Source: an uncultured bacterium | GTDB taxonomy: Bacteria; Verrucomicrobiota; Kiritimatiellia; RFP12; UBA1067 | NCBI GenBank assembly: GCA_902761275.1 | Contig: CACWJS010000018.1 | Location: 1-61,762 of the forward strand | Reading direction: 5' to 3' | Length of the DNA stretch: 61,762 bases | Part shown: piece by piece, positions 1,427 to 55,078 of the stretch | Layout of the letters: every line of letters begins with the position of its first letter | Position numbering within the stretch: the first letter of the stretch is position 1 | Translations under genes and position numbers: made by a program | The notes under the pieces: generated by a model | Database searches by the model: none | The model's input: only the letters and a program-made list of their open reading frames with translations | Told to the model about the DNA's origin: nothing

Positions 1427-4400
1427 ATGCAACTCATTAGGAGCAAGTTCGATATGACGAACCTAAGGAAATATGTCGCGCTGACGGCGGTCGTCGCTTT
1501 CATTGCGCTCGCACAGAGCATGAATGCTCAGGATGACCTTGACGACCTGTTGGCCGATCTCGAGGGTGAAACCCCCGCGGCCAAGCCAGCGGCTCAAGAG
1601 CCCGCTGCCGAGGAACCCGCGCCAGCGGCTGAGGAGCCTGCTCCTGCGCCTGCTGCCGAGGAGCCCGCAGCCGAGGAACCTGCAGCCGAGGAGCCGGCGG
1701 TGGAAGAACCTGCAGCCGAAGAGCCGGCGGCGGAAGAGCCCGCAGCCGAGGAACCTGCTGCCGAAGAACCCGCGGCCGAAGAGCCTGCAGCCGAGGAACC
1801 CGCGGCCGAAGAGCCTGCAGCCGAGGAACCCGCGGCAGAGGAACCTGCTGCCGAAGAGCCCGCGGCGGAGGAGCCCGCAGCCGAGGAACCTGCTGCTGAG
1901 GAGCCTGCGCCCGTGGCAGAGGAGCCCGCAGGCAAGAAGGTTGATGACGCGCTTGGTCTCCTTGACGAGCTTGCCGGCGAAGAGGCTGACAAGACCGAGA
2001 CATCCACGGAGCAAGTAGCTGAGACTCCTGCGCCTGCTGCCGAAGAGCCCGCTGTCGCGAAGACTGCCAAGGCCGCCGATAGGAAGGATGGCAAGCTCAT
2101 CGACGAGATTCTGACGACCGAGAGACTGCGCCGCGAGGCGATGGACGTACAGGCAATGCGCGAAATCCGCGAGGCGAAGGAAGCAATGGCAAGCGGCGAG
2201 TATGTCGAAGCCGTTCGCCACTACGGCATCGCGGTCAAGCTCCTCAATGACAGCCCCACGGCGATGCGCTACAAGAGCGAGTGCACCGAAGGCATTGCCG
2301 AAGGCCTTTACAGGGCCGCAATCGAGGAAGAGCGCACTGGGCGTCGCGCACGCGCGATCAAGTATATGGAGAAGGCCGTTGACCTTCGCCACCCGAAAGC
2401 GCGCCGCCAGCTCGAGGCGTGGAACAATGCAGACGACCCTGACGCCCACAAGACGGATGTCTCTGAAATTCAGCACCGCCGCAACGATGCCGACTACAAG
2501 CAGCGCCGCGAGAACGAGCGCCGCCACTTGAAGCGCGCAAAGCAGCTTCTTGCCCAGCGCGAGATCGATCGTGCCCTTGACGAATGCGAACTCGTTCTCG
2601 ACAAGAATCCCTACAATCAGGAGGCCATCCGTCTCCGGGACTCCATCGTTCGCAAGAGCGACGTCATCCTCAGGCAGGAACGGGAGGTTGCGCGCAAGAA
2701 GTGGATGGCCGATGTCGACAAGGCGTGGCGTCCTCCCTACGCAACCGATGCCACCGGCCGCGAAGAGGAAAAAGGAGCTACGATCAAGACGAAGCCCGAC
2801 GCCAACAGCGAGCGCACGGTTGAGCAGACCATCATCCAGCGAATGAAGGAAATGCGCCTCCCTGCGATTTCGTTCAAGCCGCCGGCTACGATCATCGACG
2901 CCGTTGAGTACTTCCGCGGTGCGTCCAAGGACTTCGATCGTCCGGAGATTCCGCTTGAGCAGCGCGGCTTCAACTTTGTCCTCAAGACGCCTGAGGCCGT
3001 CCGTATGAAAGAGGCCGCGGCGGCGAGCGATGATGCCGACGACTTCTCCGACACCGGTTCCGACGACGGCGCTGCGGGTGGCGGTCCTATCGGCGTGCCG
3101 GTGATTCCGATGATCACGGCGAGCGACATCTCCTTCTACGATGCGCTGAAGCTCGTCTGCGAGTCCGTCGAGTACAAGTTCCTGGTGCAGGGCCCGATCG
3201 TCATGGTCATGCACAAGGACATGTCGGCCGAAGAGCTCGTCACGCGCTCGTTCCCTGTTCTTTCGTCCTTCACCGAGAAGATGGGCAGCGCCAAGGAAGA
3301 CATCACGACGATGCGTGCCAGTGGCAACGGCTTCGGCGGCAGTTCGCGCAAGAGCGATGAAGGCGAGGAGAACGAGGAGCGCGATTGGAAGGAGTTCTTC
3401 TCGCTCCTTGGCGTCAAGTGGCCAGAGGGCAGCTCGATCTTCTACGTAAAGACGGTCGGCCGCCTCTTCGTCAAGAACACCCAGGACAACCTCGCGGAGT
3501 TCGAGAACGTCCTTGCCCAGCTCAACCAGCAGGTCACGCTCGTCGAGATCGAGACGAGGTTCGTCGAGGTTTGCCAGGATGACCTTAACTCGCTCGGCTT
3601 CGAGTGGATTCTTAACAGCGACTACTCTATCGGTCTCAACAAGCACCTTGCCAAGGCGCTCGGCGTCCGCGGCGGAACATGGGGCGACAGGGGTTCGAAC
3701 GACAGCAACTCGCACAGCTTCAAGTCCTCTTCGTCCTACACCGGCTCCGGAACATACAATGCGTCTGGCGCGAACGGTTCTTCTTCTTCCAGCGAGTATA
3801 CTGTAGATTCGCTGACGCAGAATGGCGGCACCCCCAGCAAGCTGACCAGCAATAGGATTATAACTTCAGACACCGCTTCGTCGCTGCTAAGCTCTGGGTT
3901 CTCAGGAAGTGGGCAAAACAGCTTTTCGCGGTCTGACGCGAGAAGTCGCACGACATACGATCGCTCTACTGGCGCAGACTGGATTTCGAATCGCGGTGGT
4001 AGGCGCAATGCGGGCGTAGGTGCCATTCAAGGTGTGAACGACTTTAGCGACACGGCAAACATGAGCGGCGTCTATTCGACTGGCCAGCGCTATCTTTCGA
4101 CGCTGAACAACCATATCTCTGGGCAGAGCAACGCATATAATGACCAGTTCATGAGGTTGAACGCATTCCTCGGTTCGGCCGACCTTTCGATGATCCTCCA
4201 CATGCTCTCGCAGAGGAGCGATACCGACCTCCTATCCGCGCCGAAGGTGCTTACGCGCCCTGGCGAAGAGGCCGTCATGAAGGTCGTTACCGAGTTCATC
4301 TACCCGACCGACTACGATGTGCAGCTGCAGTCGAGCTCTTCGGGCAGCAGCGGCAGCTATGGCGGCGGCAGTCAGTCCGCGATTCTCGCAGTCGTCGAGC

Positions 4401-5068
4401 CGCAGAGCTTCACGATGCGCGAAGTCGGCGTTATCTTGCAGGTCACTCCGTCCTTGACCGACGACGGCAACGTCGTTGACCTTGAGCTCAACACGCAAGT
4501 CGTCGACGAGCCGACCTGGAAGAACTACGGCATGAGGATTCCGTTCACTGGCAACTCTTCCCAGATGCAGAACTTCTTGGGCATAGGTGATATTCTCACT
4601 GGTCTCGCCGAGGTTCTCACGTCGATTGGTTCGGGACTGTCCGCCGATATGCAGACCGACCTCGCCGGGCGCGCGAGCGATGCGGCCTACAGGGCACTCG
4701 ACAACCTCACGACAGCTGGCAACGAGAATATGACCTACTACGATGTCCCGATGGAACAGCCGTTCTTCCACGTCCGTTCCGTTGACTCGAAGGTTTCCGT
4801 CTACCCTGGTGCGACAATCGTCATGGGCGGTCTCATCACCGAGGCCCGCAAGGCGATAGACGACAAGATTCCGTTCCTTGGCGACATCCCGTTCATTGGC
4901 CGCCTCTTCCGCAGCCATTCCGAGCAGACGTCCAAGCGCAACCTCCTCATCTTTGTCACGACGCGCATTGTCGATGGACGTGGGCGTGAGATGCACAAGG
5001 ATGGCCTTGATCTTGCCGATCAGGGCGGCGACGACGCAAAGCCCGCGCCCGAAGCGCCAGCTAACTAA
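1427..5068 (+). CDS. secretin-family outer-membrane channel (type II/III secretion system secretin domain; PilQ/GspD-like, Amuc_1098-like) with a long N-terminal extension
   Basis: 1213-aa ORF with a signal-like N-terminus (MTNLRKYVALTAVVAFIALAQS). The C-terminal secretin signature is VSVYPGATIVMGGLITEARKAIDDKIPFLGDIPFIGRLFRSHSEQTSKRNLLIFVTTRIV. It also has a (PAAEE)n acidic array, a TPR-like helical region (EYVEAVRHYGIAVKLLNDSP...) and a Ser/Gly-rich insert. Confidence 0.85.
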   Translation: MQLIRSKFDMTNLRKYVALTAVVAFIALAQSMNAQDDLDDLLADLEGETPAAKPAAQEPAAEEPAPAAEEPAPAPAAEEPAAEEPAAEEPAVEEPAAEEPAAEEPAAEEPAAEEPAAEEPAAEEPAAEEPAAEEPAAEEPAAEEPAAEEPAAEEPAAEEPAPVAEEPAGKKVDDALGLLDELAGEEADKTETSTEQVAETPAPAAEEPAVAKTAKAADRKDGKLIDEILTTERLRREAMDVQAMREIREAKEAMASGEYVEAVRHYGIAVKLLNDSPTAMRYKSECTEGIAEGLYRAAIEEERTGRRARAIKYMEKAVDLRHPKARRQLEAWNNADDPDAHKTDVSEIQHRRNDADYKQRRENERRHLKRAKQLLAQREIDRALDECELVLDKNPYNQEAIRLRDSIVRKSDVILRQEREVARKKWMADVDKAWRPPYATDATGREEEKGATIKTKPDANSERTVEQTIIQRMKEMRLPAISFKPPATIIDAVEYFRGASKDFDRPEIPLEQRGFNFVLKTPEAVRMKEAAAASDDADDFSDTGSDDGAAGGGPIGVPVIPMITASDISFYDALKLVCESVEYKFLVQGPIVMVMHKDMSAEELVTRSFPVLSSFTEKMGSAKEDITTMRASGNGFGGSSRKSDEGEENEERDWKEFFSLLGVKWPEGSSIFYVKTVGRLFVKNTQDNLAEFENVLAQLNQQVTLVEIETRFVEVCQDDLNSLGFEWILNSDYSIGLNKHLAKALGVRGGTWGDRGSNDSNSHSFKSSSSYTGSGTYNASGANGSSSSSEYTVDSLTQNGGTPSKLTSNRIITSDTASSLLSSGFSGSGQNSFSRSDARSRTTYDRSTGADWISNRGGRRNAGVGAIQGVNDFSDTANMSGVYSTGQRYLSTLNNHISGQSNAYNDQFMRLNAFLGSADLSMILHMLSQRSDTDLLSAPKVLTRPGEEAVMKVVTEFIYPTDYDVQLQSSSSGSSGSYGGGSQSAILAVVEPQSFTMREVGVILQVTPSLTDDGNVVDLELNTQVVDEPTWKNYGMRIPFTGNSSQMQNFLGIGDILTGLAEVLTSIGSGLSADMQTDLAGRASDAAYRALDNLTTAGNENMTYYDVPMEQPFFHVRSVDSKVSVYPGATIVMGGLITEARKAIDDKIPFLGDIPFIGRLFRSHSEQTSKRNLLIFVTTRIVDGRGREMHKDGLDLADQGGDDAKPAPEAPAN
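1591..1930. repeat. 15-bp tandem repeat array encoding (PAAEE)n inside the secretin gene
   Basis: More than 20 units of gcc gcc gag gaa ccc type. They include an exact tandem 30-mer, gaacccgcggccgaagagcctgcagccgag, at 1766-1795 and 1796-1825. Confidence 0.9.
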
Positions 5069-5075
5069 AGGTAAA

Positions 5076-5672
5076 ATGAAAGTGGCACTAACAGGAGGGA
5101 TTGCCTGCGGCAAATCCCTCCTTTCCAAGTTTTTAAACGAACTTGGCGTCGAGACACTTGACGCCGATGATGTCGTGCATGAGCTTCTCCCCGACCCAGA
5201 AGAGCGTCGACGCATTGCCGCTGAGGTGTTTGCCGATCCCGAGAAACGTCGCGCCCTTGAGGCGAAGATACATCCAGTCGTCAAAGAGAGGATTGACCAG
5301 TGGTTTGAGGGGGCAGGAGTCAGAAGTTGGAGTTCAGAGTTGGAGTTGGAGGGTAGGGGTCAGGGGTCAGGAGTCAGTGGGGCGGGAGTAAAAATTGCTA
5401 TAATTCCGCTTTTATTCGAAGCACACTGGGAGAAAAATTTTGATATAATATGTTGCGTCGCTTCCACACGCGAGAACCAAGTAAAGCGTATGATGACGAC
5501 GAGGGGGATGACGCTTGCGGAGGCCGAGGCACGACTCGCAGCGCAGATGCCTGTCGAGGAAAAGGCCAGGCGTTCGCAGTATGTCATCCGAAACGACGGA
5601 ACAGCCGAGGAGCTCCGCGCAGAAGCGCAAAAGCTCGTCGCCTGGCTGAAAATCTCCAATTTCCAACTCTAA
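5076..5672 (+). CDS. coaE: dephospho-CoA kinase
   Basis: MKVALTGGIACGKS P-loop at the N-terminus, followed by IIPLLFE and a CoaE-like remainder. The ORF-track start at 4878 overlaps the secretin gene and is rejected. The gene contains an in-frame repeat insertion at 5316-5388. Confidence 0.85.
   Translation: MKVALTGGIACGKSLLSKFLNELGVETLDADDVVHELLPDPEERRRIAAEVFADPEKRRALEAKIHPVVKERIDQWFEGAGVRSWSSELELEGRGQGSGVSGAGVKIAIIPLLFEAHWEKNFDIICCVASTRENQVKRMMTTRGMTLAEAEARLAAQMPVEEKARRSQYVIRNDGTAEELRAEAQKLVAWLKISNFQL
5316..5388. repeat. reverse-orientation copy of the CTCCAA/TGACCCC repeat element, in frame inside coaE
   Basis: 5316-5351 is a 34/36 match to the reverse complement of the 36-mer at 5709-5744. 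GGGGTCA heptamers follow. The segment is translated as GVRSWSSELELEGRGQGSGVSGAG. Confidence 0.85.
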
Positions 5673-5838
5673 ACTCTAACTCCTGACCCCTGATCCCTGA
5701 CTCCTAAACTCCAACTCCAACTCTGAACTCCAACTACTGACCCCTGACCCCTAATTTCCACTCTCCAACTCCAACTCTGAACTCCAACTACTGACCCCTG
5801 ACCCCTAACCCCTGACCCCTAAACTCCAACTCCAACTC
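5654..5838. repeat. forward-orientation CTCCAA/TGACCCC repeat array filling the coaE 3' end and the whole coaE-rho spacer
   Basis: The exact 36-mer ctccaactccaactctgaactccaactactgacccc occurs at 5709-5744 and 5763-5798. Around it are CTCCAA hexamers and TGACCCC/TAACCCC heptamers. Confidence 0.9.
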
Positions 5839-5845
5839 AAGATTT

Positions 5846-7408
5846 ATGTCCGAAGAACTCGATGTGTTTGCGAGCGCCGTCACCAAGGGCGCCGCACCGA
5901 AGCCCCAGCAACCCCAGCCGCAGCAGCAGGCGGGCGGCAATAATGGCCAGAAAAAGCGGTTTCACAACCGCGGCGGCAAGAACTTCAACCGTGGCGGCGG
6001 CAAGCCGAACAATTCCCCGATTCGCGGCGCGAATGGCGAGGAGAGCGTAAACCCGCTTCTCAATGCCCCGCTCCCAACCGAACAGCGCGCGCAGGAGGCC
6101 GAAGTCCCCGCGAACCCGAACCGCAATCCCGATCTTCCCGAGTACCGTCTCGCCGACATCCAGACATGGCCAGCGCCGACGATTGTCGAACGCATGATGC
6201 CTGGTGCCGATCCCGAGGAACTTGGCACCTACCGCAAGCATGAGCTTATCTTTGCCGCGATCAGGATGTACCTCGCGAACGGCGGCGCCGTGCTCGCCTC
6301 TGGCTGCCTTGAGATTGTCCGCGAAGGACATGGCTTCTTGAGGTCCGCGAAGAACAACTTCCTCGCGTACCCTGAGGACGTCTTCGTCACGCAGCAGCAG
6401 ATTCGTCGCCATGCACTCAGGACGGGCGACATAGTAGAGGGCCCGATCCGCGACCCGCGCGATCGTGACCGCTTCTTCTGCCTTGGCAACGTCGCGACGG
6501 TAAATGGCAAGGAGCCGTCCGTCGCCGCGCGCGTCATCCACTTCGAGAACCTGACCGCGACCTTCCCGACGCGGCGCATAATCCTCGAGACCGATCCCAA
6601 GGAGTTTTCGACGCGCGTCGTCGACCTCTTCACGCCGATTGGCTTCGGCCAGCGCGGTCTCATCATCGCGCCGCCGCGCGTCGGCAAGACCGTTCTCCTT
6701 CAGAAGATGGCGAACGCGATTTCCAAGAACTATCCCGAGGCGATGCTCATCATCCTTCTCATCGACGAGCGCCCCGAGGAAGTCACCGACATGCAGCGCA
6801 ACACGAAGGCGATGGTGCTTTCGTCTACGTTCGACGAAGAGCCCCAGCACCACGTGAGCGTCACCGAGATGGTGCTTGAGATGTCGAAGCGCCAGGTCGA
6901 GAACGGCCGCGACGTAATCATCCTTATGGACTCGCTGACTCGTATGGCGCGCGCCTATAACACGGTACAGCCACACTCCGGCAAGATCCTCACAGGTGGC
7001 GTCGACGCGCTTGCGATGCATAGGCCAAAGAGGTTCTTCGGCGCGGCGCGCAACATCGAGGGCGGCGGCTCGCTTACGATCATCGCGACAGGCCTCGTCG
7101 ACACTGGCTCCAGGATGGACGAGGTCATCTTCGAGGAATTCAAGGGCACGGGCAACATGGAGATTGTCCTCGACCGTGGACTTGCAGACAAGCGCATCTA
7201 CCCCGCAATCGACATCGACAAGTCCGGGACGCGCAAGGAAGACCTGCTGCTCGACCCGATGGAGCTCGAGAAGACCTGGGGCATGCGCCGCATCCTTTCC
7301 GACGCCGGTCCCGAGAGCGCGATGAAGTCTGTCCTAAACTCGCTTAAGAAGACGCAGTCCAATCCCGAGTTCCTTCTTGCCCTTGACTTAAAGAACCTGG
7401 AGCGGTAA
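5846..7408 (+). CDS. rho: transcription termination factor Rho with a Q/N/G/R-rich N-terminal extension
   Basis: RecA-type ATPase core with [25 protein letters not shown] and [12 protein letters not shown]. There is an OB/RNA-binding part (GFLRS...[25 protein letters not shown]) and a Rho-like C-terminus. Confidence 0.95.
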
Positions 7409-12130: not shown

Positions 12131-15100
12131 GCGACATAGTCATACACAATGCGAAGGTCCACAACCTGCGGGGAATCGACGTAACGATTCCCCGTGACTC
12201 TCTCACGGTTGTAACGGGGCTTTCGGGGAGCGGAAAGTCGTCGCTTGCGTTCGACACGCTATATGCAGAAGGGCAGCGCAGATACGTCGAGTCCCTTTCT
12301 GCGTATGCACGGCAGTTCCTCGACAGGATGCAGAAGCCCGACGTCGAGAAGATAGAAGGGCTCTCGCCTGCGATTTCCATCGAGCAGCGCACGACGAGCG
12401 GCAACCCGCGCTCCATTGTCGCGACAGTCACCGAGATTCACGACTACTTGAGAATCCTCTACGGATCGATCGCCGTCGCGCATTGCCCGAAGTGCGGCAA
12501 GCCGGTCGTCAAGCAGTCGGCGGAGCAGATCGTCGAATCGATACTGGGCAACCAGGGGGGTGCCGCGAAAATCATCATCTACGCTCCGCTGGTAAAGGGC
12601 AAGAAGGGACGCCACGAGGAGACGCTTGCTTCCGTGAAGCGCAACGGCTTTGCGCGCGTCAGGATCGACGGCACGACATACCCGATTGACGAACTTCCCG
12701 AACTGGACAAGAAAAAGGCGCACAACATAGACGTCGTGGTCGATCGTCTCGTGATTCCCGCGGCGCCCGACGCTGCTTTCAAGACGCGTCTCACCGACTC
12801 TGTCGAACTCGCCCTCAAGACCGGCAAGGGCATAATGGAAGTGGAGAGGTTGGGGGACAAGGGGTCAGGAGTCAGTACAGAGGGGGCGAGGCGCGAATCA
12901 GAAATCTTGTCTGGCGCGGAGCGGAAAGAGCCGAAGGCGAGAGACGCGGAGCGCCAGACCACCTATTCCGAACTCAACGCCTGCCCTGACTGCGGTATTT
13001 CGTTTGATGAGCTGAAGGCGCGGTCGTTCTCGTTCAATTCGCCGTTTGGCGCGTGCCCGACGTGCGCGGGGCTTGGGCAGCTCTACTACTTTGACGAAGA
13101 CCTCGTTGTGCCCGACAAGTCGCTTCCGCTCGAGGAGGCGATACACCCCTGGCGGCGCATGGGGCAGATGAACATTCTCTACCACAGAGAGCTTCTTGCG
13201 CATATCGCGAAACAGTACAAGGTGAAGCTCTCGACGCCCTACGAGAAGCTGCCGGCGAAGTTTCGGCACGGGCTCATGCACGGCTTCAAGGACGATCTCG
13301 TTCTTCCGTGGCGGCGAGTCGACCGGCCGTTCGAGGGAGTCCTCGCGTCGCTTCAGCGACGGCTCGACGAGGCGGAGGATGACGAGATGCGCGCGAAGTT
13401 CGAGGCGTACCAGAGCTTCCGCACTTGTCCCGACTGCGGCGGCTCGCGCCTGCGGCCCGAGTCGCGCGCGGCAACTGTCGCCGGGAAGTCGATCGTCGAA
13501 GTTATGGCAATGCCCGTCACCGAGGCATTGGAGTTTTTCAAAAATAAATTCCAAACTCCAACTAAAGACTCCAACTCCACTCTCCAATTCCACTCTCCAA
13601 CTCCAACTTCCAACTCCAACTCCACTCTCCAACTCCATTCTCCAACTCCAACTCCACTCTCCAACTCATCAAAGCTCGCCGGCCTCAAGGACATCATCGC
13701 CGAGATCGTGCGGCGGCTCCAGTTCCTTCTCGACGTCGGTCTTGACTACTTGACGCTCGACCGCGCGGCGTCCACTCTTTCCGGCGGCGAGATGCAGCGC
13801 ATCCGCCTCGCGACGCAAATCGGCTCTGGGCTCACAGGTGTCCTCTATGTTCTTGACGAGCCGACGATAGGGCTTCACCCGCGCGACAACGAGCGACTTA
13901 TCTCGACCCTCAAGGGTCTTCGCGACCGCGGCAACACCGTAGTCGTCGTCGAGCACGACGAAGAGATGATGAGGAGTGCCGACTACATCGTCGATCTCGG
14001 TCCAGGCGCAGGGCGCGAAGGCGGCAAGGTAATGTATCAGGGCAACTTCAAGGGACTCCTCAAGGCGAAGTCGCTCACCGCCGATTACCTGACAGGAAGA
14101 AAGAAAGTTGGAGTCCAGAGTTCGAGTTGGAGAGAAGAAGCAAAAAATTCCACTCTCCAACTCCATTCTCCAACTCCAACTCAAAACTTCAACTCAAGAC
14201 TCCAACTCAAATCTCTCACCATCTCCGGTTGTACCGAGCACAACCTCAAGAATATCACCGCCCACTTCCCCGTCGGCGCGTTCACTGTGGTGACAGGCGT
14301 CTCGGGCTCGGGCAAGTCGACGCTCGTCGACGAGACGCTCAAGCGGGCGCTTCTCCAGAAGTTCTACCACGCGAAGGACATCCCCGGCAAGTTCAAGAAG
14401 CTCACTGGCTGGGAGAACTTCGACAAGGTCGTGGAAATCGACCAGTCGCCCATCGGCCGCACGCCGCGTTCGAACCCGGCGACGTACGTCGGCTTCTTCT
14501 CCGAGATACGCGACCTCTTCGCGAAGACCGAGTCTGCGCGCGCGCGCGGCTACACTGCGGGGCGCTTTTCCTTCAATGTGAAGGGTGGTCGCTGCGAGAC
14601 GTGCGGCGGCGACGGATTGCAGAAGCTTGAGATGAGCTTCCTCCCCGATGTCTACGTCACGTGCGACCAGTGCGGCGGCAAGCGCTTCAACGCCGAGACG
14701 CTTGAAGTCACCTACGGCGGCAAGAACATCGCGGACGTCCTCGAGATGACTGTCGCGGAAGGGTGCGAGTTCTTTGCGAAGGTGCCGTCTCTCGCACGCA
14801 AGCTCCAGACGCTTCTCGACGTCGGGCTTGGCTACATCGCTCTCGGGCAGTCCGCTACGACGCTCTCAGGCGGCGAGGCCCAGCGCATCAAGCTCGCGAC
14901 TGAACTTTCCCGCCGCTCTACGGGTCGCACGCTCTACCTTCTCGACGAGCCGACGACGGGGCTTCACTTCGACGACGTGGCGAAGCTGATGAAGCTTCTC
15001 CTGCGGCTCCGCGACCAGGGGAACACCATCATCGTCATTGAGCATAACATTGATGTCATCCGTTGCGCCGATTGGATCGTAGACCTCGGGCCCGGTGGCG

Positions 15101-20775: not shown

Positions 20776-20865
20776 GGAGAGTTGGCGGAGTGGTTGAACG
20801 CGGCGGTCTTGAAAACCGTTGAGGATGCAAGTCCTCCGGGGGTTCGAATCCCTCACTCTCCGCCA
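20776..20865 (+). tRNA. tRNA-Ser (anticodon UGA)
   Basis: Hand-folded cloverleaf. The acceptor stem is GGAGAGT/ACTCTCC. The anticodon stem is GCGGT/ACCGT with loop CTTGAAA. The long variable arm is GAGGA..TCCTC. The T-arm is GGGGG-TTCGAAT-CCCTC, followed by an encoded CCA. Confidence 0.9.
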
Positions 20866-22083: not shown

Positions 22084-22177
22084 GGAGAGATGGCCGAGTG
22101 GCTGAAGGCAACGGTTTGCTAAATCGTCGTACGGGTTAATTTCCGTACCGAGGGTTCGAATCCCTCTCTCTCCGCCA
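22084..22177 (+). tRNA. tRNA-Ser (anticodon GCU)
   Basis: The acceptor stem is GGAGAGA/TCTCTCC. The anticodon stem is ACGGT/ATCGT with loop TTGCTAA. The long variable arm is CGTACGG..CCGTACC. The T-arm is GAGGG-TTCGAAT-CCCTC, followed by CCA. Confidence 0.9.
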
Positions 22178-30831: not shown

Positions 30832-33800
30832 ATGAAAAGGTTGATATTGCTGATGGTAATGGGTCTTGTGGTTGCTTTGCCTCTTATTGCTGGCACGGAA
30901 ACGGTCGATGGAATTGAATGGACATATACCGTATTAAATGGTGAAGTTATGCTTGGAGGAAGCTACGCTGCAGCCACAGCCGTTCCAACATCTACGGCTG
31001 GGGAGTTGATGATACCATCCTTTCTCGGTGGTTATCCTGTGACGAGCATCAGGGCTCGTGCGTTCGATGGTTGCAGCGGGTTGACGAGTGTGGTAATACC
31101 AGATAGCGTGGCGAGCATCGGAGATTCTGCGTTTTCCCGGTGCAGCGGGTTGACGAACATGACTATGGGTGTCGGCGTGACGAGCATCGGGAAGTATGCG
31201 TTCCGTGATTGTAGGAGTCTAACGAGCGTGACGATCCCCGCCAGTGTGACGAACATCGGTGAGTGCGCGTTCCAAAGGTGTGGCAGGATTGAAGCCGTAT
31301 ACATAACCGACATAGACAAATGGTGCGGGATAACTTTTGGCGATATCGACGCAAACCCCCTTTACTACGCATACAATCTCTACCTAAATGGGTCAAAGAT
31401 AGCAGGAGATTTAACGATCCCTGACGGCGTGACGGCTATTTGCCCTGCCTTGTTCTATGGTTGCAGCGATCTGACGAGCGTGACAATTCCAAATAGCGTG
31501 ACGGGCATAGGAGAGGATGCGTTCTGCAACTGCAGCGGGCTGACGAGCATAACGATTCCCGGAAGTGTAACGAACATTGCGGTGAGTGCGTTCGCCAACT
31601 GCACCAACCTTACAAGCGTTTCAATTGGTGATGGCGCATTGAGCATAGGGGATTCTGCGTTTTCTGGCTGCAGCGGGCTGACGAGCGTGACGATCCCCGG
31701 CAGCGTGACGAACATCGGAGAGAACGCGTTCTATGGTTGTAGCGGAATGTTGTTATTTATCGTAGATGATGCCAATCTTAAATATGCATCCGTGAATGGG
31801 TTGTTGCTATCTAAAGACAGAAAGAATCTAATTCAAGGAGTAAATGGTAATGTAACAATCCCTGATGGTGTGACAAGCATAGGGCGCGATGCGTTCTATA
31901 ATTGCAGGGGTCTTACATGTGTTCAGATCCCTGCCAGTGTGACGAACATCGGTGATAAGGCGTTCAACGGTTGTAGAGGGCTAACTAGCGTAACTATTCC
32001 GAACAGCGTGACGAGCATTGGGAACCGCGCGTTCAACGGTTGCAGAGGGCTGACCAATGTGTCGATTCCGCAATGTGTTTGCACTAATCGGCTGCGGACT
32101 GTTTTTGAATCGTCCTATCAGTCAATTACGAATGTCGTAATCTTAGATGGTGTTACAAGCATCGGGGATGGGGCGTTCTCCGGCTGCAGCAATCTGAAGA
32201 GCATAATAATTCCAGATAGTGTGTCAAGCATAAGGCAAAGCGCATTCTCCGATTGCAGAGCGTTGACGAGCGCATCGATCCCGCAATGTGTTTGCACTAA
32301 TCGTCTGTCGTCCGTTTTTCCATCCTATCAGTCAATTACGAATATTGTTGTTTCGGATGGCGTTACGAGCATGGGAGATTCGGTGTTTGATGGTTGTAGT
32401 AGCTTGGGGAGTGTGATAATCCCCGGCTCCGTGACGGCCATGCAAGGTATCAGTACTAATCGGTTGTCATCTATATTTCCTTCGTTTTATCAGTTGATTA
32501 CAAGTGTTGTCATTCCAGATGGTGTGACGGATATCGTTGATGGGGCATTTGGTGGCTGCAGTCGCTTGGCGAATGTGACAATACCGGACAGTGTGACGTG
32601 CATCGGGAGCAGTGCGTTCGCCAATTGCACAAGCCTTACGAGCGTGACAATACCGGACAGCGTGACGAGTATCGGTGATGGGGCGTTTAAGGGGTGTCGA
32701 GGGCTTGTCGATAAAGATGGGTTTATTGTCGTTAAGAATGTTCTGTATGGATATTTTGGTGAGGCGCAAAGTGTGACCATCCCCAACAAAGTGACGGATA
32801 TTAGTGACGAAGCATTTTACGGCTGCAGCGGCCTGACGAGCGTGACGATACCTAACAGCGTGACGAGCATAGGGGATGGTGCATTCGAGTACTGCAGCGG
32901 CCTGACGAGCGTGATGATACCTAACAGCGTGACTACAATCGGGTCTTCTGCGTTCTACCGATGCGGCGGGCTGACGAGCGTGACGATCCCAGACAGCGTG
33001 ACGAGCATAGGGGATGGTGCATTCGGGTACTGCAGCGGCCTGACGAGCGTAACTATCCCCAATAGCGTGTTAAACGTCGGGTATTCTGCGTTCTATGAGT
33101 GTGAAAACTTGACGAGCATGACAATCCCGCAATGTATCTGTGAAAACCATGGTAGTGTTCACAACTTTTTTGACCCGATATCGCAGATTACGAATATTGT
33201 TGTTGCAGATGGCGTAACGAGCATAGGACCATATTTATTCGGTTACTGTCCGGGGCTGACAAGTGTGACGATCCCAGGTAGCGTTACAAATATTGATGCC
33301 TATGCATTTGAGGGTTGCAGCTCGCTTGCAAATGTGCACATCTCGCATTGTGCCTGCACCATTCCGTTGTCGGGAATTTGCCCTTCATCTATCTGTGATA
33401 TGATTACGAGCGTAGATATTTTGGATGGAGTTACGAATATTATTGTAGGAATGTTTCGCCGCTGTGGCGGGTTGACAAGCGTGTCGATCCCTGCCAGTGT
33501 GACGAGCATAGAGGGAACGGCATTTTTTAGGTGTACAAACTTGACAAGCGTGGTGTTTGCGGGAAATGCGCCAGCAGTTGCCAGAAATTCTTTTTCTGGC
33601 TTGCAGGGATGCGTCGCTTCAGTGTCGCCAAAGTCTACGGGGTGGGGCGTCAATGTCGGCGAGAAGTGGAATGGACTAACGTTGCAGTATTGGCCGGAGG
33701 TGTTGACTGCAGCGGCGAGTGATGCAGAGGTTAGCGAAATAATGTTGACATTTACTGATGCGTCCATTGTGGGTGCAGTGACGAATGTGGCTGAATACGA

Positions 33801-34200
33801 GGCATTCAGAGCTTGGGTCGACGACAAGAACCTATGTCAACCGTCAGTAGTCGCGTCGCCATATGTGGCGGCGGCGTATTTGCTGGGCGCGGAGCGGTTG
33901 TTTGAGAACGAGCCGACGGTCGAGATTGGAGAGTTGTCGATTGGCGAGGGCGAGATTGCTGGCACTACGGCGATGACTGTCGCGGTGACAGTAAAAGACG
34001 GCGAGAGTGTAGTCACGGTTGATGCCGATAAGGTCAAGGCGATGTTCGAGGCGACAAACGATCTTGGCGACTGGACTGGCGCAGCGAAACTGATGCCAAT
34101 GGTGACAACCTCTGGCACCGACGCAAGCGGCAAGATGACTTTTGTTGTCACTCCGGGCGACGGAACGGCGAGCCGCGCGTTTTTTAGAATAAGACGATAG
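30832..34200 (+). CDS. secreted BspA-type leucine-rich-repeat (LRR_5-like) surface protein
   Basis: Signal peptide MKRLILLMVMGLVVALPLIAG. There are more than 25 units of about 23 aa of the type IP.SVTSIGD.AF..CSGLTSVTIP. G+C is visibly lower than in the flanking genes. Confidence 0.85.
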   Translation: MKRLILLMVMGLVVALPLIAGTETVDGIEWTYTVLNGEVMLGGSYAAATAVPTSTAGELMIPSFLGGYPVTSIRARAFDGCSGLTSVVIPDSVASIGDSAFSRCSGLTNMTMGVGVTSIGKYAFRDCRSLTSVTIPASVTNIGECAFQRCGRIEAVYITDIDKWCGITFGDIDANPLYYAYNLYLNGSKIAGDLTIPDGVTAICPALFYGCSDLTSVTIPNSVTGIGEDAFCNCSGLTSITIPGSVTNIAVSAFANCTNLTSVSIGDGALSIGDSAFSGCSGLTSVTIPGSVTNIGENAFYGCSGMLLFIVDDANLKYASVNGLLLSKDRKNLIQGVNGNVTIPDGVTSIGRDAFYNCRGLTCVQIPASVTNIGDKAFNGCRGLTSVTIPNSVTSIGNRAFNGCRGLTNVSIPQCVCTNRLRTVFESSYQSITNVVILDGVTSIGDGAFSGCSNLKSIIIPDSVSSIRQSAFSDCRALTSASIPQCVCTNRLSSVFPSYQSITNIVVSDGVTSMGDSVFDGCSSLGSVIIPGSVTAMQGISTNRLSSIFPSFYQLITSVVIPDGVTDIVDGAFGGCSRLANVTIPDSVTCIGSSAFANCTSLTSVTIPDSVTSIGDGAFKGCRGLVDKDGFIVVKNVLYGYFGEAQSVTIPNKVTDISDEAFYGCSGLTSVTIPNSVTSIGDGAFEYCSGLTSVMIPNSVTTIGSSAFYRCGGLTSVTIPDSVTSIGDGAFGYCSGLTSVTIPNSVLNVGYSAFYECENLTSMTIPQCICENHGSVHNFFDPISQITNIVVADGVTSIGPYLFGYCPGLTSVTIPGSVTNIDAYAFEGCSSLANVHISHCACTIPLSGICPSSICDMITSVDILDGVTNIIVGMFRRCGGLTSVSIPASVTSIEGTAFFRCTNLTSVVFAGNAPAVARNSFSGLQGCVASVSPKSTGWGVNVGEKWNGLTLQYWPEVLTAAASDAEVSEIMLTFTDASIVGAVTNVAEYEAFRAWVDDKNLCQPSVVASPYVAAAYLLGAERLFENEPTVEIGELSIGEGEIAGTTAMTVAVTVKDGESVVTVDADKVKAMFEATNDLGDWTGAAKLMPMVTTSGTDASGKMTFVVTPGDGTASRAFFRIRR

Positions 34201-36543: not shown

Positions 36544-36553
36544 CATTGGTGTA

Positions 36554-36614
36554 ACCTTTCAACCTTTCAACCTTTCAACTTTTCAACTTTTCAACCTTTC
36601 AACTTTTCAACTTT
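36554..36614. repeat. G-free 8-bp tandem repeat (CTTTCAAC / CTTTTCAA, about 7 units) in the tig-clpP spacer
   Basis: The array reads aacctttcaacctttcaacctttcaacttttcaacttttcaacctttcaacttttcaacttt and ends 2 nt before the clpP ATG. Confidence 0.9.
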
Positions 36615-38439: not shown

Positions 38440-38505
38440 GGGTCAGTAGTTGGAGTTCAGAGTTGGAGTTGGAGATAGGAGTTAGTAGTCAGGGGTCGGG
38501 AGTTA
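38431..38505. repeat. reverse-orientation copy of the CTCCAA/TGACCCC element spanning the clpX stop and the clpX-panD spacer
   Basis: 38439-38474 is the exact reverse complement of the 36-mer at 5709-5744 and 5763-5798. The clpX TAG (38437-38439) overlaps the first base of that exact copy and lies within the surrounding repeat-like sequence. Confidence 0.9.
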
Positions 38506-38885: not shown

Positions 38886-41222
38886 ATGAAACACGGAAAG
38901 ACTCTCTTTTTGCTGGCATTCATCTTTGCGGTGGCGGCCGCGTTCGCGGGCGAGGCGCTTCCCGCCGAGGCGGCCGACTGGCCGGCAAAGCTCGGCATGA
39001 CTCCGAAGATGCTCTTCCTCGTGCTGCAGATCGGCATAATCATCTTTGCTGCGAAAATCGGCGGGACGATTGCGACTGCGCTTAAGCTTCCGAGCGTCCT
39101 TGGCGAACTTGGCGCCGGCATCCTTATCGGCCCGTGGGCGCTTGGCGGTTTTGCGATCCCCGGCTTCGACGGCATGTTCCAGTACGGCATCTTCTACGGC
39201 AAGGCCCTGCGTGCCCAGGCCGCCGCAGGCGGCAACCCCTTTGCCGCGACGCCCGAGCTCTACGGCATTTGCACCATCGCGTCTGTCGTCTTGCTGTTCC
39301 TCTCTGGTCTCGAGACTAACCTCAAGATGTTCCTCAAGTACGCGTTTGCCGGCTCTCTCGTTGGCGTCGGCGGCGTGGTGCTCTCGTTCCTCCTCGGCGA
39401 CCTCTGCGCCGTCTACGCGACGACATACCTCCCCGATCTCCTTGGCGGCATCCAGTGCCTCGCGGAGCTCGGCGAGCTCGTGAAGGAAGGCAAAGTCATC
39501 CAGGCGGCGCTTTCGCCTGCAGCGATGTTCATGGGCATCATGTCGACCGCGACCTCCGTCGGCATCACGGCGCGCATCCTCTCCGAGAAGAAGAAGATGG
39601 ACTCCGAAGAGGGCGTGACGATCATGGCGGGCGCGGTGATCGACGACGTCCTCGGCATTATCGTGCTCGCGATCGGTATGGGCATCATCGGCTCCCAGCG
39701 CGAGGCGGCTGCGGCCGGCGAGGCAGCGGCGCAGGGCATCGACTGGGGAGCCATTGGAGCGACGGCGCTCAAGGCGTTCGGCGTGTGGCTTGTCGGCACA
39801 ATCGTTGGCGTGGTGTTCGCGAAGAAGATTTCCTGGCTCCTCAAGCTTTTCAAGGCGCATGCCGCGATCGCAACGCTTGCGTTCGGTCTTGCGCTCGTCA
39901 TCGCGGGTATGTTCGAGGCACTTGGCCTCACGCTCATCATCGGCGCATACGTGATGGGCCTTGCGCTCTCGCGCACCGACATCAAGCACCTCGTCCAGGA
40001 CAACCTCGCGAACCTCTACACCTTCCTCGTGCCGATCTTCTTCTGCGTCATGGGCATGATGGTCGACGTTACTGCGCTCTGCTCGAAGCCCGTCCTGATC
40101 TTCGGCGGCATCTACACCGCGCTCGCCGTTCTCGCAAAGATCGTGGGCTGCGCGATTCCGTCGCTCTTCTGCGGTTTCAACTTCCTTGGCGCCTTGCGCG
40201 TCGGCGCTGGCATGATTCCGCGTGGCGAAGTCGCGCTCATCATCGCAGGCATCGGCCTTTCCAACGGCTATCTCACCCAGGAGGTGTTCGGCATTGGCAT
40301 CCTCATGACGCTCGTCACGACGGTTGTCGCGCCGCCTGCGCTCGTCGGGCTCTTCCACCCGAAAGCGAAAGGCGTGCGCCACCCGAAGGCAGACTCCGAC
40401 GGCGGCCGCGAGGTCGTCTTCGAGCTCGAGACGCGCGAAGTCGCGGATCTCGTCGTCACTCGCCTCGTCGAGGAGTTCCGCAAGGAGGGCTTCTTCGTCA
40501 CGCTCCTCTCCCAGACCGACCACATCTGGGAAATCGCGATGGACGACATCGACATGTCGGTCCGCCGCATTGGCAAGAAGATTCGCTTCACCTGTACGAA
40601 GGCCGAGGAGACGATGGTCATGACGGCGTGGATGGAAGTTGCCTCGCAGATGAACGACCTCGCGCGTGCAATTGCCAAGCCCATCCGCAAGGAGGACCTT
40701 GGCAGGATGATTGCGAAGAGCGAGCCGGCGAAGCGCGGCCACGAAGGCGTCGGCCGCTACCTGCAGGGCTTTGTCATGCTGCCGAAGTTCCGCGCGTCGT
40801 CCAAGAAGGAGGCGATCGAGAAGATGGTCGCCGAAGTCGCCGCGGCCTGCCCCAACCACGTCAAGAACGCGGCGGCGGCGGCAGAGGCGGTCTTGAAGCG
40901 CGAGGAGTCAATGCCGACTGGGCTCGACCACGGCATTGCGGTTCCCCACGGCCGCAGCCCGAGCGTCCACGGCATCGCTGGCGCCGTTGCAATCGTCGAC
41001 AACGAAGGCACCGCCAACGGCTGCATCCCCGACTACGAGACGATAGACAACTCGCCGTTGAAGATCATCGTCCTTACGGTTGCGAACGACGAGGCGCAGA
41101 CGCCGTATCTCAAGCTGATGAGCTACATCTCCCGCGCGCTTCGCGCCGACAACGGCTACGAACGGCTTGCCGCGTGCAAGACGCCTGACGAGATGCGTCG
41201 CTTCTTTAGAAACGCCAAGTGA
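38886..41222 (+). CDS. cation:proton antiporter (CPA-type, about 12 TM helices) fused to a C-terminal PTS EIIA(Ntr/fructose)-type domain
   Basis: A long hydrophobic N-terminal part of about 430 aa has the [16 protein letters not shown] motif. The C-terminus has the [17 protein letters not shown]-2-type His motif. Confidence 0.7.
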
Positions 41223-42730
41223 GTCTCGGGGATACGATTGCGGCTGTTGCAACGGCTCCTGGGCGCGGAGGAGTCGCGGTCGTTCGCGTAAGCGGACCTG
41301 AAGCGTTTCAAGTCGCCAAGCGGCTTACTGGCCACACCCCCAAACCTCGTAGGGTCAGTTTAGAGTCTATTAGCGACCCTGGCTCTACCTTAATTGACAC
41401 TGCAGTTGTTCTTGCCTTCAAGGGCCCCCACTCCTACACTGGTGAGGATGTCGTAGAATTCCAGTGCCACGGTGGCTCCGTCACGCCTCGCCGCGTTCTC
41501 GAGGCTTGCCTTGCCTCAGGCGCGCGCCTCGCGAATCGCGGAGAATTCACCGAGCGCGCGTTTCTTAACGGCAAACTATCCTACGAAGAGGCGGAATCTG
41601 TTCTCAATCTCGTCGATGCCAAGACAGACCGTGCGGCCGATGCTGCGCTCCGCAGCGTGTCCGGTGAGTGTCGCAAGGCAACAAGGGAAATCTACGACGC
41701 TCTCGTCGACCTCTCTTCGACCGCCGAACACGCGCTTGACGTAAGCGAAGATGAGTTGCCCGATGGTTTTCTCGATGGGCTCGCCTCTTCTGTCGCCTCA
41801 ATCGCCTCGCGCCTCGACGATGCGATTCGCCGCGCCAAGGAGGGGAAGATCCTTCGTGACGGCGCTCTTGTAGTGATCGCGGGTCCGCCGAACGCAGGAA
41901 AAAGCTCACTTCTAAACGCTCTTCTCGGGGAAAGCCGTGCGATAGTCTCGGCGACGCCTGGCACGACGCGCGACTCTATAGAGGAGTGGCTCGACATTAG
42001 CGGCTGGCCAGTGCGTCTTGTCGACACGGCGGGGCTTCGCGAAACCACCGACGCCATCGAGGGCGAAGGCGTCACGCGTGCGCGCGACCTTATGGAAAAG
42101 GCCGACATTGTGCTAAACCTGACTCCCGCAGACGGCGATCCGACAGGTGGGATGTGTGGGACGTGTGGGACGAGCGGGACATGCAGGACAGTCGCCGTCA
42201 TCGAAGTCCTTTCCAAATGCGATCTGATAGTAAACTCCGAAGATTATGGCTCTCGTTACCACTCCGCAGTTTCACACTCGACAACCGCTGTTCACGCGAA
42301 TCCCGATAGTGGTGGTTTGGTGGCGCGAAGCGGTGGAGCGTTAGCGGGAACAACAACCATCGGTGTTTCTGTTAGCGCCAAGACAGGCGAGGGACTTGAT
42401 GCGCTCCGCGGCGCAATTGCCGCGGAACTCGAGCGCAGGGCCGCCGAACCAGGCGAGGCGGAAGGCGGGCTCGGCTGCGGCGCGTCGGCCCTGATTGAAG
42501 CGCGGTCGCTCCTCTCCCCCACTCCCCCACTCTCTCACTCCTCCACTCCCCCACTCCCCCACTCCCCCACTCCTCCACTCCTCCACTCCTCCACTCCCCC
42601 ACTTTCCGACCTAGTTCTTCTCGCCAACTGCGTCCGAGCAGCGGCCGAACGGCTGGGCGAGGCCGTCGGTGCGACCTACTCGGCCGACATGCTTGACGCC
42701 CTCTTTTCTCGTTTCTGCGTCGGGAAGTGA
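41219..42730 (+). CDS. mnmE: tRNA modification GTPase MnmE
   Basis: The GTG start overlaps the upstream stop (GTGA). The sequence has [45 protein letters not shown] and the C-terminal FCVGK motif. Extra low-complexity inserts are present. Confidence 0.9.
42147..42190. repeat. GGGAC-type G-run array in frame in mnmE
   Basis: gtgggatgtgtgggacgtgtgggacgagcgggacatgcaggac is translated as [15 protein letters not shown]. Confidence 0.7.
42511..42604. repeat. CCACTCC(C/T)C oligo-repeat array in frame in mnmE
   Basis: ...ccccactcccccactctctcactcctccactcccccactcccccactcccccactcctccactcctccactcctccactcccccact is translated as [31 protein letters not shown]. Confidence 0.9.
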
Positions 42731-42758
42731 TTTGGCGTTTGCCATAATATGCTATAAA

Positions 42759-42767
42759 TGCTATAAT
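42759..42767 (+). promoter_or_regulatory. extended -10 (TGCTATAAT) upstream of the pseudopilin operon
   Basis: The sequence reads gccataatatgctataaaTGCTATAATtg and lies 32 nt before the ATG at 42800. A GAGGAAGG element sits in between. Confidence 0.4.
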
Positions 42768-54341: not shown

Positions 54342-55078
54342 CCGACGCACATTGCCATGTCTCCTGCGGTGACTCGTCTGTGCGCGAGTTGCTTATTGGT
54401 CGCGACTTCTTTGGCGTTCATCCCTGGGAGACGCTCGATGATGGGACAACCGGGACAGGCGGGACAACCGAGACAAGACGAGCATTAGTATCGGATGTTC
54501 CATTTCTCGCTACGCTTCGCGCTCAACTTCTCGACCACCCAAACGCTGGCGTTGGCGAGATTGGGCTTGATCGTCTGAAAAGCCGCGACATTTCACCGCG
54601 CATGCGCGAGGTCTTCGAGGCGCAGCTTGCGCTTGCTCTGGAACTTGGTCGCCCCGTTGTTCTTCACGGCGCGAAGTGCTGGGGTCAGGTCGTCACAACG
54701 GTTTGCCGCCATCTTTCCCACTCCCCCACTCCCCCACCCCCCCACTCCCCCACTCCTCCACTCCCCCACTCCCCCACTCCCTCATTCCTTTTTCATGGCT
54801 TTTCCAGATCTGACGGGCTTATTCCAGAGATTGTCAAGCTCAATGGTTTTATTTCAGTGGGACCGGCCGTTTTGAACGACCACGCCGTGAACTACCGCGA
54901 GCTCGTTAAGAAAATCCCGCTCGACCGGCTCCTCGTCGAAACCGACAGGACTTCTTCTTCAGACTCTCCGCCGATCTCCGACGTCCTTGCCAAAACGGCC
55001 GACATCCTAAATATCTCCTCTGCGGAACTCGAGCGGATTACCGACGAAAACGCCGACCGATTCCTTGGCGTCGTGTGA
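54338..55078 (+). CDS. tatD: TatD-family metal-dependent hydrolase
   Basis: The sequence has DAHCHV, GEIGLD, PVVLHG, FHGFS and LLVETD. The ATGA overlaps the upstream stop. Two low-complexity inserts are present. Confidence 0.8.
   Translation: MTDAHCHVSCGDSSVRELLIGRDFFGVHPWETLDDGTTGTGGTTETRRALVSDVPFLATLRAQLLDHPNAGVGEIGLDRLKSRDISPRMREVFEAQLALALELGRPVVLHGAKCWGQVVTTVCRHLSHSPTPPPPHSPTPPLPHSPTPSFLFHGFSRSDGLIPEIVKLNGFISVGPAVLNDHAVNYRELVKKIPLDRLLVETDRTSSSDSPPISDVLAKTADILNISSAELERITDENADRFLGVV
54443..54476. repeat. GGGACA-type G-run array in frame in tatD
   Basis: gggacaaccgggacaggcgggacaaccgagacaa is translated as GTTGTGGTTETR. Confidence 0.7.
54717..54783. repeat. CCACTCCCC oligo-repeat array in frame in tatD (same family as 42511-42604)
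   Basis: cccactcccccactcccccaccccccactcccccactcctccactcccccactcccccactccctc is translated as [23 protein letters not shown]. Confidence 0.9.

Follow-up and report, generated by a model that had tools for sequence, protein, structure and literature searches.

Dispersed repeats of heptamer and octamer units have been known in bacteria for decades, and their origin and role are unexplained. The closest described class to the arrays reported here is that of the dispersed G-rich heptamer simple sequence repeats (SSRs) of Xanthomonas (GGGAATC) and Nostoc (GGGGA(C/T)T) (Rehm et al. 2015, PLoS One, PMC4692102), and Mrazek, Guo and Shah 2007, as cited in PMC4692102, found long SSRs to be over-represented in prokaryotes. 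Heptamer direct repeats with the unit TAACTGA occur in Beggiatoaceae, Cyanobacteria and Bacteroidetes (MacGregor 2015, PMC4679880) and may be compared with the cyanobacterial short tandemly repeated repetitive (STRR) heptanucleotide sequences. Another relevant system is that of the Rickettsia palindromic elements (RPEs), discrete palindromes of ~150 bp that encode a conserved peptide. Here we analyze short-unit tandem arrays in a 61,762-nt contig of an uncultured gut Kiritimatiellia bacterium (CACWJS010000018.1 of assembly GCA_902761275.1; its whole length is called the window), and in particular the two arrays that lie in frame inside mnmE, the gene for a tRNA modification GTPase. We consider it probable that the mnmE arrays are members of a dispersed, hypermutable population of 6-9-nt SSRs that is prone to slippage and is tolerated in proteins as translated passenger linkers.

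The window contains 11 such arrays, which occupy 837 nt or 1.4% of it. They share several traits with the Xanthomonas and Nostoc repeats. The tandem units are ~7 nt long and combine a G-run with 3-4 further bases; each genome has many of these arrays, widely dispersed; they are found directly behind stop codons where two co-directional genes meet; inverted pairs in convergent orientation are frequent; and close genomes differ extensively at the same locus in both length and sequence. Some of the arrays may also form G-quadruplexes. Here as there, the associated genes are of all functional classes and a function is not demonstrated. However, only 7-11% of the Xanthomonas repeats are intragenic, whereas 8 of the 11 window arrays are in coding sequence (CoaE one, UvrA three, MnmE two, TatD two) and three fill spacers (coaE-rho, tig-clpP and post-clpX). 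The strong non-coding bias of the class of Rehm et al. 2015 is therefore not seen here, and 18 strict arrays were found inside mnmE across 12 species, although array density per kb is still higher in short intergenic spacers than in open reading frames (ORFs). Several unit families also coexist here (periods of 6, 7, 8 and 9 nt, and composites) and replace each other at one site, and many families in species related to that of the window lack G-runs. The STRR and TAACTGA repeats are likewise lineage-characteristic, dispersed, intergenic heptamer arrays with variable copy number, occasional copies in ORFs and an obscure mechanism of dispersal, but the TAACTGA repeats are mostly just upstream of start codons and were proposed to be sites for a translational regulator, whereas the window arrays follow no such rule and many are translated. 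RPEs share with our arrays that repetitive DNA is in frame in unrelated housekeeping genes at positions compatible with fold and function (PMC10969869); unlike RPEs, the window arrays consist of oligo-repeats in tandem, with a unit number that varies and with no defined ends. Neither the fixed length nor the terminal inverted repeats of RPEs and of miniature transposable elements with inverted repeats (MITEs) were found in the mnmE and tatD arrays. Phase-variable SSR loci, for example those of Neisseria and Haemophilus, consist of perfect units of mostly 1-5 nt in surface or restriction-modification genes, with ON and OFF alleles coexisting. These contingency loci are similar to our arrays in being intragenic tandem repeats with an unstable number of units whose length is not a multiple of 3, and they differ in that our arrays are imperfect, are in housekeeping genes and were seen only as in-frame alleles. 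Thus, the arrays described here differ from the known class by their heavy load in the coding regions of housekeeping genes, by their coexisting, replaceable families and by a host phylum (Kiritimatiellota, in the Planctomycetes-Verrucomicrobia-Chlamydiae (PVC) group) for which we found no such report; a search of the literature on tandem repeats in Kiritimatiellae gave no papers.

The gene had been called mnmE from its sequence in the original prediction, and its domains and motifs agree with that identification. Its ORF encodes 503 aa with the Pfam domains TrmE_N (7.5e-43), MnmE_helical (3.2e-28) and MMR_HSR1 (4.1e-22), and motifs G1 to G5 and the C-terminal CVGK (CxGK) are all intact, so that the TrmE_N, helical and G domains expected of the family are all there. 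The two arrays were found by Tandem Repeats Finder (TRF), and their translations are exactly those first proposed; a third site of insertion and deletion between them had been missed. The gene and its three sites are as follows.

41219 to 42730, plus strand: mnmE, with three lineage-specific indel sites (from Pfam, motif positions and comparison with 9hip_A).
42147 to 42190, plus strand: mnmE array 1, or site i, about 4-5 units of GGGACNNNN with a period of 9, read G-T-x.
42251 to 42364, plus strand: mnmE site ii, a non-repetitive insertion of 38 aa between the GTPase motifs G4 (SKCD) and G5 (SAK), from the alignment of relatives.
42511 to 42604, plus strand: mnmE array 2, or site iii, about 11 units of CTCCCCCA or CTCCTCCA with the motif CCCACTCC, read (SPTPPLxH)n.

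Both arrays are head-to-tail runs of near-perfect units of no more than 9 nt. TRF delimited array 1 to 42147-42180 (period 9, 3.8 copies, 88% matches, unit GTGGGACGT) and array 2 to 42514-42603 (period 8, 11.2 copies, 90% matches, unit CTCCCCCA); the latter mixes CTCCCCCA, CTCCTCCA and CTCTCTCA units and is not a perfect, uninterrupted tract. The peptide of array 1 (residues 310-324, 15 aa) is located in a loop of the G domain, after the strand IVLNL and before the strand VIEVLSKCD, and that of array 2 (residues 433-463, 31 aa) in an inter-helix loop of the C-terminal helical domain. Comparison with the solved MnmE structure 9hip_A showed collinearity over residues 1-307, 383-400 and 467-503, and the extra residues, ~27 and ~21, were confined to the two intervals that hold the three sites. 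An AlphaFold model of low confidence (mean pLDDT, the predicted local distance difference test score, of 52.7), used for secondary-structure boundaries only, placed all three sites in coil between secondary-structure elements, with array 2 as coil of pLDDT <50 between the helices at 419-432 and 462-482.

We next compared the three sites among relatives, using the best 120 of thousands of MnmE homologues from a protein search (72-90% identical to the window protein, 435-521 aa) and 120 close relatives of TatD, a sample biased to intact ORFs in which broken ones would rank low. One of the best 120 MnmE homologues is labeled Kiritimatiellae, and the nearest genomes are Kiritimatiellia metagenome-assembled genomes (MAGs) from rumen and gut. 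Nearly all of the variation in MnmE length across the 120 relatives was at the three sites, with conserved flanks. Site i held from ~1 to ~6 GTx units in some relatives, non-repetitive sequence (DANRESPVARHPSPSTRT, DSSCSLSDVSRKSPATKT) in others and an LKVEKLKVE repeat in still others. Site iii fell into length classes of 7/8, 15/16, 23/24 and 31 aa, that is, steps of 8 aa or 24 nt; at the DNA level there were ~2 units in L001 and L002, ~4 in L003 and 11 in the window, with flanks that align cleanly. At site ii, where the window has 38 extra residues, the shortest relatives have KCDLAANSEDFGVIPISAKTGEG or ANSEDFGVIPISAK, and other relatives have (TTCCCCR)n read as PSPFPVPR repeats, or STFQPSTFNLS, some with a further nested insert of 22 aa. 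In one relative, L004, site iii is occupied by an array of the AACTTTC family and site ii by (TTCCCCG)5. Between the conserved flanks, close relatives thus show a smaller number of units, no array at all, or a sequence that is unrelated. This bears out the first description of the arrays as in-frame inserts and shows them to be lineage-specific insertions or expansions that vary in copy number. Non-repetitive homologous sequence of equal length, the finding named beforehand as speaking against insertion, is absent from the relatives, and the reading of the arrays as insertions or expansions therefore stands. The alleles of sites i and iii combine as mosaics among relatives, which rules out strict coupling between the two sites.

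Several other inserts were observed in relatives of mnmE. Nested in the site-ii insert of L001 (4088-4153) and L003 (8748-8809) is an insertion of 66 nt, GMHRSAAEGRFGVAEPAGRASVC, that keeps the frame; its core is palindromic, with a predicted hairpin of -24 kcal/mol, and it is present in many relatives and absent from the window. We considered it as a dispersed element and rejected this, since no second copy was found in any sequence examined. Site ii of L206 (3601-3762; GCA_024698055.1, a Kiritimatiellae MAG) is a 162-nt array of ~23 TTCCCCG or TTCCCCA units read (PSPFPVPR/H)n, whose template strand is a long series of G-quadruplex tracts with 3-nt loops. L207 (2960-3060) has a fourth in-frame insert, RVGLVSDRVSTPTLSDSNS, made of TAGAGTC/GACTCTA units in a loop of the N-terminal domain; in the public annotation an internal GTG was taken as the start codon, and the protein is therefore truncated there. 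Downstream of mnmE, in the short spacer before a T2SS-F-like gene (42740-42767), a TGCTATAATA-type unit is present about three times and resembles reiterated -10-like boxes; TRF also found this type of unit in L001.

The same two motifs are found in tatD, at the coordinates originally given, and they vary among relatives as they do in mnmE.

54443 to 54476, plus strand: tatD site 1, GGGACNNNN array read GTTGTGGTTET (TRF).
54717 to 54783, plus strand: tatD site 2, CCCACTCC array read (HSPTPPLP)n (TRF), with a canonical G-quadruplex motif on the template strand.

Relatives of TatD had 0-5 GTx units at site 1, no insert, or a KVESLKLKVE-type allele, and at site 2 they fell into length classes of 6, 14 and 22 aa, with the non-repeat allele KRMIGDGLATGDKRQA in more distant relatives. 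When the window was searched for GGGACN4GGGACN4GGGAC with at most one mismatch, five matches were obtained, and a search for CCACTCCNCCACTCCNCCACTCC gave 12; all were in mnmE or tatD on the plus strand, and three-unit patterns of either motif had no match in 100 dinucleotide-preserving shuffles. The motifs had also been said to be read in the same frame in the two genes. This carries no information, because an array of period 8 runs through all three codon phases every 24 nt, so that any frame gives the same periodic peptide of 8 aa: CCCACTCC gives PTPPLPHS in 3/3 frames, and it is free of stops on both strands.

We also analyzed how such arrays are distributed across lineages. In 43 PVC loci, arrays that have a unit of 6-9 nt and no fewer than 3.5 copies had a density of 8.6 per 100 kb; in 36 outgroup loci obtained with an identical query, it was 0.56 per 100 kb. 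The units differ species by species, and the 18 strict mnmE arrays consist of unrelated units in the same few loops. A test that scores an array as coding when it lies within a stop-to-stop open frame over-calls in GC-rich DNA and gives an upper bound only; it scored a known intergenic array of L002 as inside a frame. Lineage specificity of the CCCACTCC unit itself was considered and rejected, since >120 metagenome contigs, with GC contents from 35 to 74%, contain (CCCACTCC)3 as three perfect units, for the most part not within long open frames. These contigs (L085-L164) come from varied environments, which indicates that the octamer has expanded in unrelated organisms, and several large contigs of one sample (Ga0335394) carry multiple copies. 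Taken together, these data show that the population of long-unit SSRs is lineage-wide and genome-wide and is not special to mnmE. SSRs of this kind have already been described in other phyla.

In-frame and intergenic arrays differed in how their lengths vary. No frameshifted allele was found among 240 relatives or among the DNA loci examined (a sample biased to intact ORFs). P0011 and P0024 appeared to be broken at the N-terminus and were rejected as frameshifts, since the frame in their DNA is intact. What sets them apart is one more in-frame insert, which in P0011 is in the N-terminal loop, together with a start that was mis-called. Only 24-nt, three-unit steps were seen in coding arrays, whereas intergenic arrays at homologous sites measured 79, 71, 64 and 73 nt, differences that are not multiples of 3. 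The unit CTGACCC has a stop in every frame, and this orientation occurs only in the intergenic array at 5654-5838; inside coaE it occurs only as its stop-free complement, GGGTCAG.

Claims about nucleic-acid structure were examined as well. There are four canonical G-quadruplex motifs (runs of G3 or longer, loops of 1-7 nt) in the window, and three of the four are within arrays: mnmE array 1 (42149-42178, coding strand), tatD array 2 (template strand) and 5795-5819. The template strand of mnmE array 2 had been described as G5-AGT throughout and a very strong quadruplex former. It has at most three consecutive G5 runs, and a fourth would need a loop of 19 nt; the array is thus non-canonical because CTCCTCCA and CTCTCTCA units interrupt the G5 runs, and the description is not supported as stated. 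On the mRNA, array 2 is C-rich and G-poor as proposed, a rut-like composition with 63 C and 0 G in 94 nt. The two-part arrangement of the arrays does recur in mnmE and tatD; it is not a hairpin, and the mnmE arrays are not complementary beyond their composition. No inverted repeat (seed 7) was found in 42100-42650 or 54400-54820. Pairing of mnmE array 1 with array 2 was rejected (duplex z = -0.46, 91/300 mononucleotide shuffles), as was a folded mnmE region, since the minimum free energy of 42130-42620 was no better than that of dinucleotide shuffles (z = +0.6); the tatD duplex was marginal (z = -2.0). Rfam at gathering thresholds matched only two tRNAs in the window, which disposed of a known RNA family at the arrays. 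True complementarity was seen in the mnmE gene of L205, which has (GTTGAAA)n at site i and the exact complement (TTTCAAC)n at sites ii and iii (z = -4.7 and -6.9). Among neighboring arrays in all PVC loci, which are few and partly non-independent pairs, the order was purine-rich then pyrimidine-rich seven times and the reverse zero times.

The remaining arrays of the window are in uvrA, coaE and three spacers.

5308 to 5377, plus strand: G-rich composite array of GGAGTT and GGGTCAG units, in frame in coaE (from the inverted repeat and gene identity).
5654 to 5838, plus strand: 185-nt C-rich composite of AACTCC and CTGACCC units filling the coaE-rho spacer (TRF, a super-unit of period 54 repeated 3.3 times).
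13545 to 13667, plus strand: in uvrA, an in-frame array built of CTCCAACTCCACT-type units, for which TRF gives the periods 6, 7 and 13 (TRF, translation).
14106 to 14215, plus strand: inverted pair in frame in uvrA, with a G-rich arm at 14106-14135 and a C-rich AACTCC-family array at 14149-14215.
36553 to 36614, plus strand: (AACYTTTC)7.4 in the tig-clpP spacer (TRF).
38440 to 38500, plus strand: G-rich composite of GGGTCAG and AGTTGG units, starting from the clpX stop codon (TRF).

The coaE array is the reverse complement of the intergenic array downstream of it (5308-5377 with 5683-5752, 70 nt, 89% complementary, duplex z = -15), and the latter array, 5654-5838, has stops in all frames as oriented. 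In uvrA, the arms 14106-14135 and 14149-14215 form an inverted repeat of 28 nt that is 82% complementary (duplex z = -6.4). The tig-clpP spacer carries (GGGGTCA)n in L002 and L003, with flanks 96-97% identical to those of the window, and a third unit family in L004, with flanks 91-94% identical; the post-clpX site carries a homologous but recomposed array in L001-L003 and a different family in L004. The AACTCC/GGGTCAG family is found at 5308, 5654, 13545, 14106, 14149 and 38440, so that dispersal of a unit family to unlinked loci is seen both for this family and for CCACTCC with GGGACN4 in mnmE and tatD. The earlier suggestion that the mnmE motif grades into the uvrA units is plausible from the sequences: the mnmE units may be related to those of uvrA, coaE and the spacers through a shared GGAGT/GGGGT core.

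Directly 3' of the 185-nt array, which has 83 C and 10 G, lies rho (5846-7408, with Rho_RNA_bind and ATP-synt_ab domains). Leaders that are C-rich and G-poor have the look of Rho-loading sites, and rho of E. coli is autoregulated by attenuation in its leader; for these reasons, the array could affect rho expression. In the Rho protein (520 aa), the RNA-binding domain is preceded by a low-complexity N-terminal extension of ~150 aa (5846-6300) with a high content of Q, N, G, P and K. Longer repeats and RNA genes were also observed in the window. At 1648-1913, a repeat of period 30/45 nt in ~6-8 copies encodes an AEEPA-type acidic and proline-containing sequence near the N-terminus of a secretin-domain protein (1427-5068, 1213 aa). 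An ORF of 1122 aa (30832-34200) contains, at 32823-33128, repeats with a period of 69/138 nt (75-86% matches); their translated units (…CSGLTSVTIPNSVTSIGDGAFEY…) look like putative leucine-rich-repeat modules. Two long-arm tRNA genes of 87 and 91 nt are at 20776-20862 and 22084-22174.

We propose the following mechanism. Each genome of this Kiritimatiellia lineage would hold several unit families, in a population typical of the lineage, and its arrays would grow, shrink and diversify by replication slippage and re-amplification of mutated units. Loops of 7-9 nt exceed what MutS-type mismatch repair corrects efficiently. Variant units would be re-amplified in turn, so that families may grade into one another through the GGAGT/GGGGT core, and new arrays would arise near existing ones, often convergently with the purine-rich array before the pyrimidine-rich one; local template switching that seeds nearby inverted copies would be a reasonable extension. 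Selection acts as a filter only: arrays within genes survive in loops between structural elements, solely in stop-free orientation and solely at lengths that keep the frame. With this filter, an 8-nt unit therefore changes in threes (24 nt = 8 aa) and a 9-nt unit singly. The anatomy and variation of the arrays, the conservation of frame, the position in loops and the distribution across lineages are observed in the data; slippage as the driver, local seeding and neutrality are the proposed parts of the account. Translation would yield low-complexity Gly/Thr or Ser/Thr/Pro linkers, passengers outside the mechanism of MnmE, and G-quadruplex formation, C-rich RNA resembling a Rho-loading site and ribosome stalling at polyproline may be side effects.

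Several points weigh against this proposal. Slippage accounts for the number of units, not for the spread of one family to unlinked genes, and it explains neither the replacement of one family by another at one site within 3-9% flank divergence nor the co-occurrence of GGGACN4 and CCACTCC exclusively in mnmE and tatD. Neutrality of the peptides is an assumption, sampling from a protein database is biased against alleles with a frameshift, the confidence of the structure model is low (its mean pLDDT is given above), and the trend to convergent pairs rests on few, partly non-independent pairs. There is a small chance that an active copying process not yet described, for example template-switch or fold-back synthesis at stalled forks or a dedicated enzyme, may spread arrays in Kiritimatiellia. 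If so, it would seed convergent arrays nearby, move families between unlinked genes and overwrite families in place, and the loops of essential proteins would be continuously remodeled, a bacterial counterpart of the low-complexity inserts in housekeeping proteins of Plasmodium.

Four other explanations were weighed, each of which is less well supported than slippage combined with a selective filter. The arrays could be the ends or fragments of non-autonomous mobile palindromic elements, similar to MITEs, REPINs or RPEs, that insert into genes and spacers. The true inverted pairs at coaE (70 nt, 89%, z = -15) and uvrA (z = -6.4), the convergent complementary arrays in mnmE of L205, the 66-nt palindromic insert nested in frame in mnmE of L001 and L003 and the swapping of different families at the same sites are all consistent with such elements, as is the in-frame position of arrays at structurally permissive places in housekeeping ORFs, for which the palindromic insertions in Rickettsia genes are a precedent (PMC10969869). 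However, the arrays have no fixed length and their alleles differ by whole units; those of mnmE and tatD are unlinked by any inverted repeat or complementarity beyond composition; the DNA between paired arrays is genuine gene, including the G4-G5 region of MnmE; and target-site duplications were not evident at the aligned junctions, for which no systematic search was made. We therefore regard mobile elements as an unlikely source. We hold it equally unlikely that the arrays serve a selected function, whether the peptides provide flexible linkers, sites for S/T-P modification or PxxP binding sites, or the nucleic acid acts as a regulatory signal in the form of a G-quadruplex, an i-motif or a Rho-loading site. 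Many relatives do keep arrays in frame, three of the four canonical quadruplex motifs in 61.7 kb lie in arrays, the mRNA of array 2 is extremely C-rich and free of G, the 185-nt C-rich array is directly in the rho leader, and the preference for four units reported by Rehm et al. matches the requirement of a quadruplex (PMC4692102). Yet the presence, length and unit family of the arrays differ among relatives that are 75-90% identical, some of which have no array or an unrelated sequence; orientation is inconsistent at homologous spacers (pyrimidine-rich in the window, G-rich in L002 and L003); the families without G-runs in related species are many; the DNA repeat dictates the peptide in every frame; and Rehm et al. 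did not identify a regulatory role for analogous repeats (PMC4692102).

Phase variation is less probable still. According to this explanation, gain or loss of a single 7- or 8-nt unit would reversibly frameshift mnmE, tatD or uvrA and give switchable translation-fidelity or mutator phenotypes. The unit lengths, 7 and 8, cannot be divided by 3, instability of the arrays is demonstrable over short evolutionary distances, and if the frame were shifted at array 2, the protein would lose the essential CVGK motif at its C-terminus. Against this, 240/240 relatives and all examined DNA loci were in frame (with the bias to intact ORFs noted above), the arrays are imperfect and interrupted (90% matches), independent samples share identical alleles, the hosts are housekeeping and not surface genes, and the same arrays also fill spacers, where frame is irrelevant. 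Finally, since the contig comes from a metagenome and assemblers of short reads can get the size of a repeat wrong, the arrays might be artefacts of assembly or sequencing in low-complexity DNA, a reading to which we give practically no weight. Identical mnmE DNA was found in two more assemblies (ERZ27279954 and ERZ28613103) from different samples and with different assembler naming, and identical tatD DNA in ERZ27279954; such identity in independent assemblies indicates that the arrays are real DNA. Homologous arrays are also present in ENA, JGI, NCBI and Logan records, and the arrays, at 44-94 nt, are shorter than typical reads.

The arrays of this lineage are an unusually informative case. 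Public databases contain hundreds of near-identical alleles of essential genes present in single copy, in which array gain, loss and replacement can be followed one unit at a time, and, because the reading frame acts as a built-in selective filter, the rate of change, the spectrum of step sizes and the seeding of new arrays become directly measurable. Such arrays inflate the apparent divergence of proteins, and they may mislead gene callers, as in one mis-called start, and strain typing in gut and rumen metagenomes. The loops of MnmE, TatD, UvrA and CoaE also show how much low-complexity sequence enzymes absorb.

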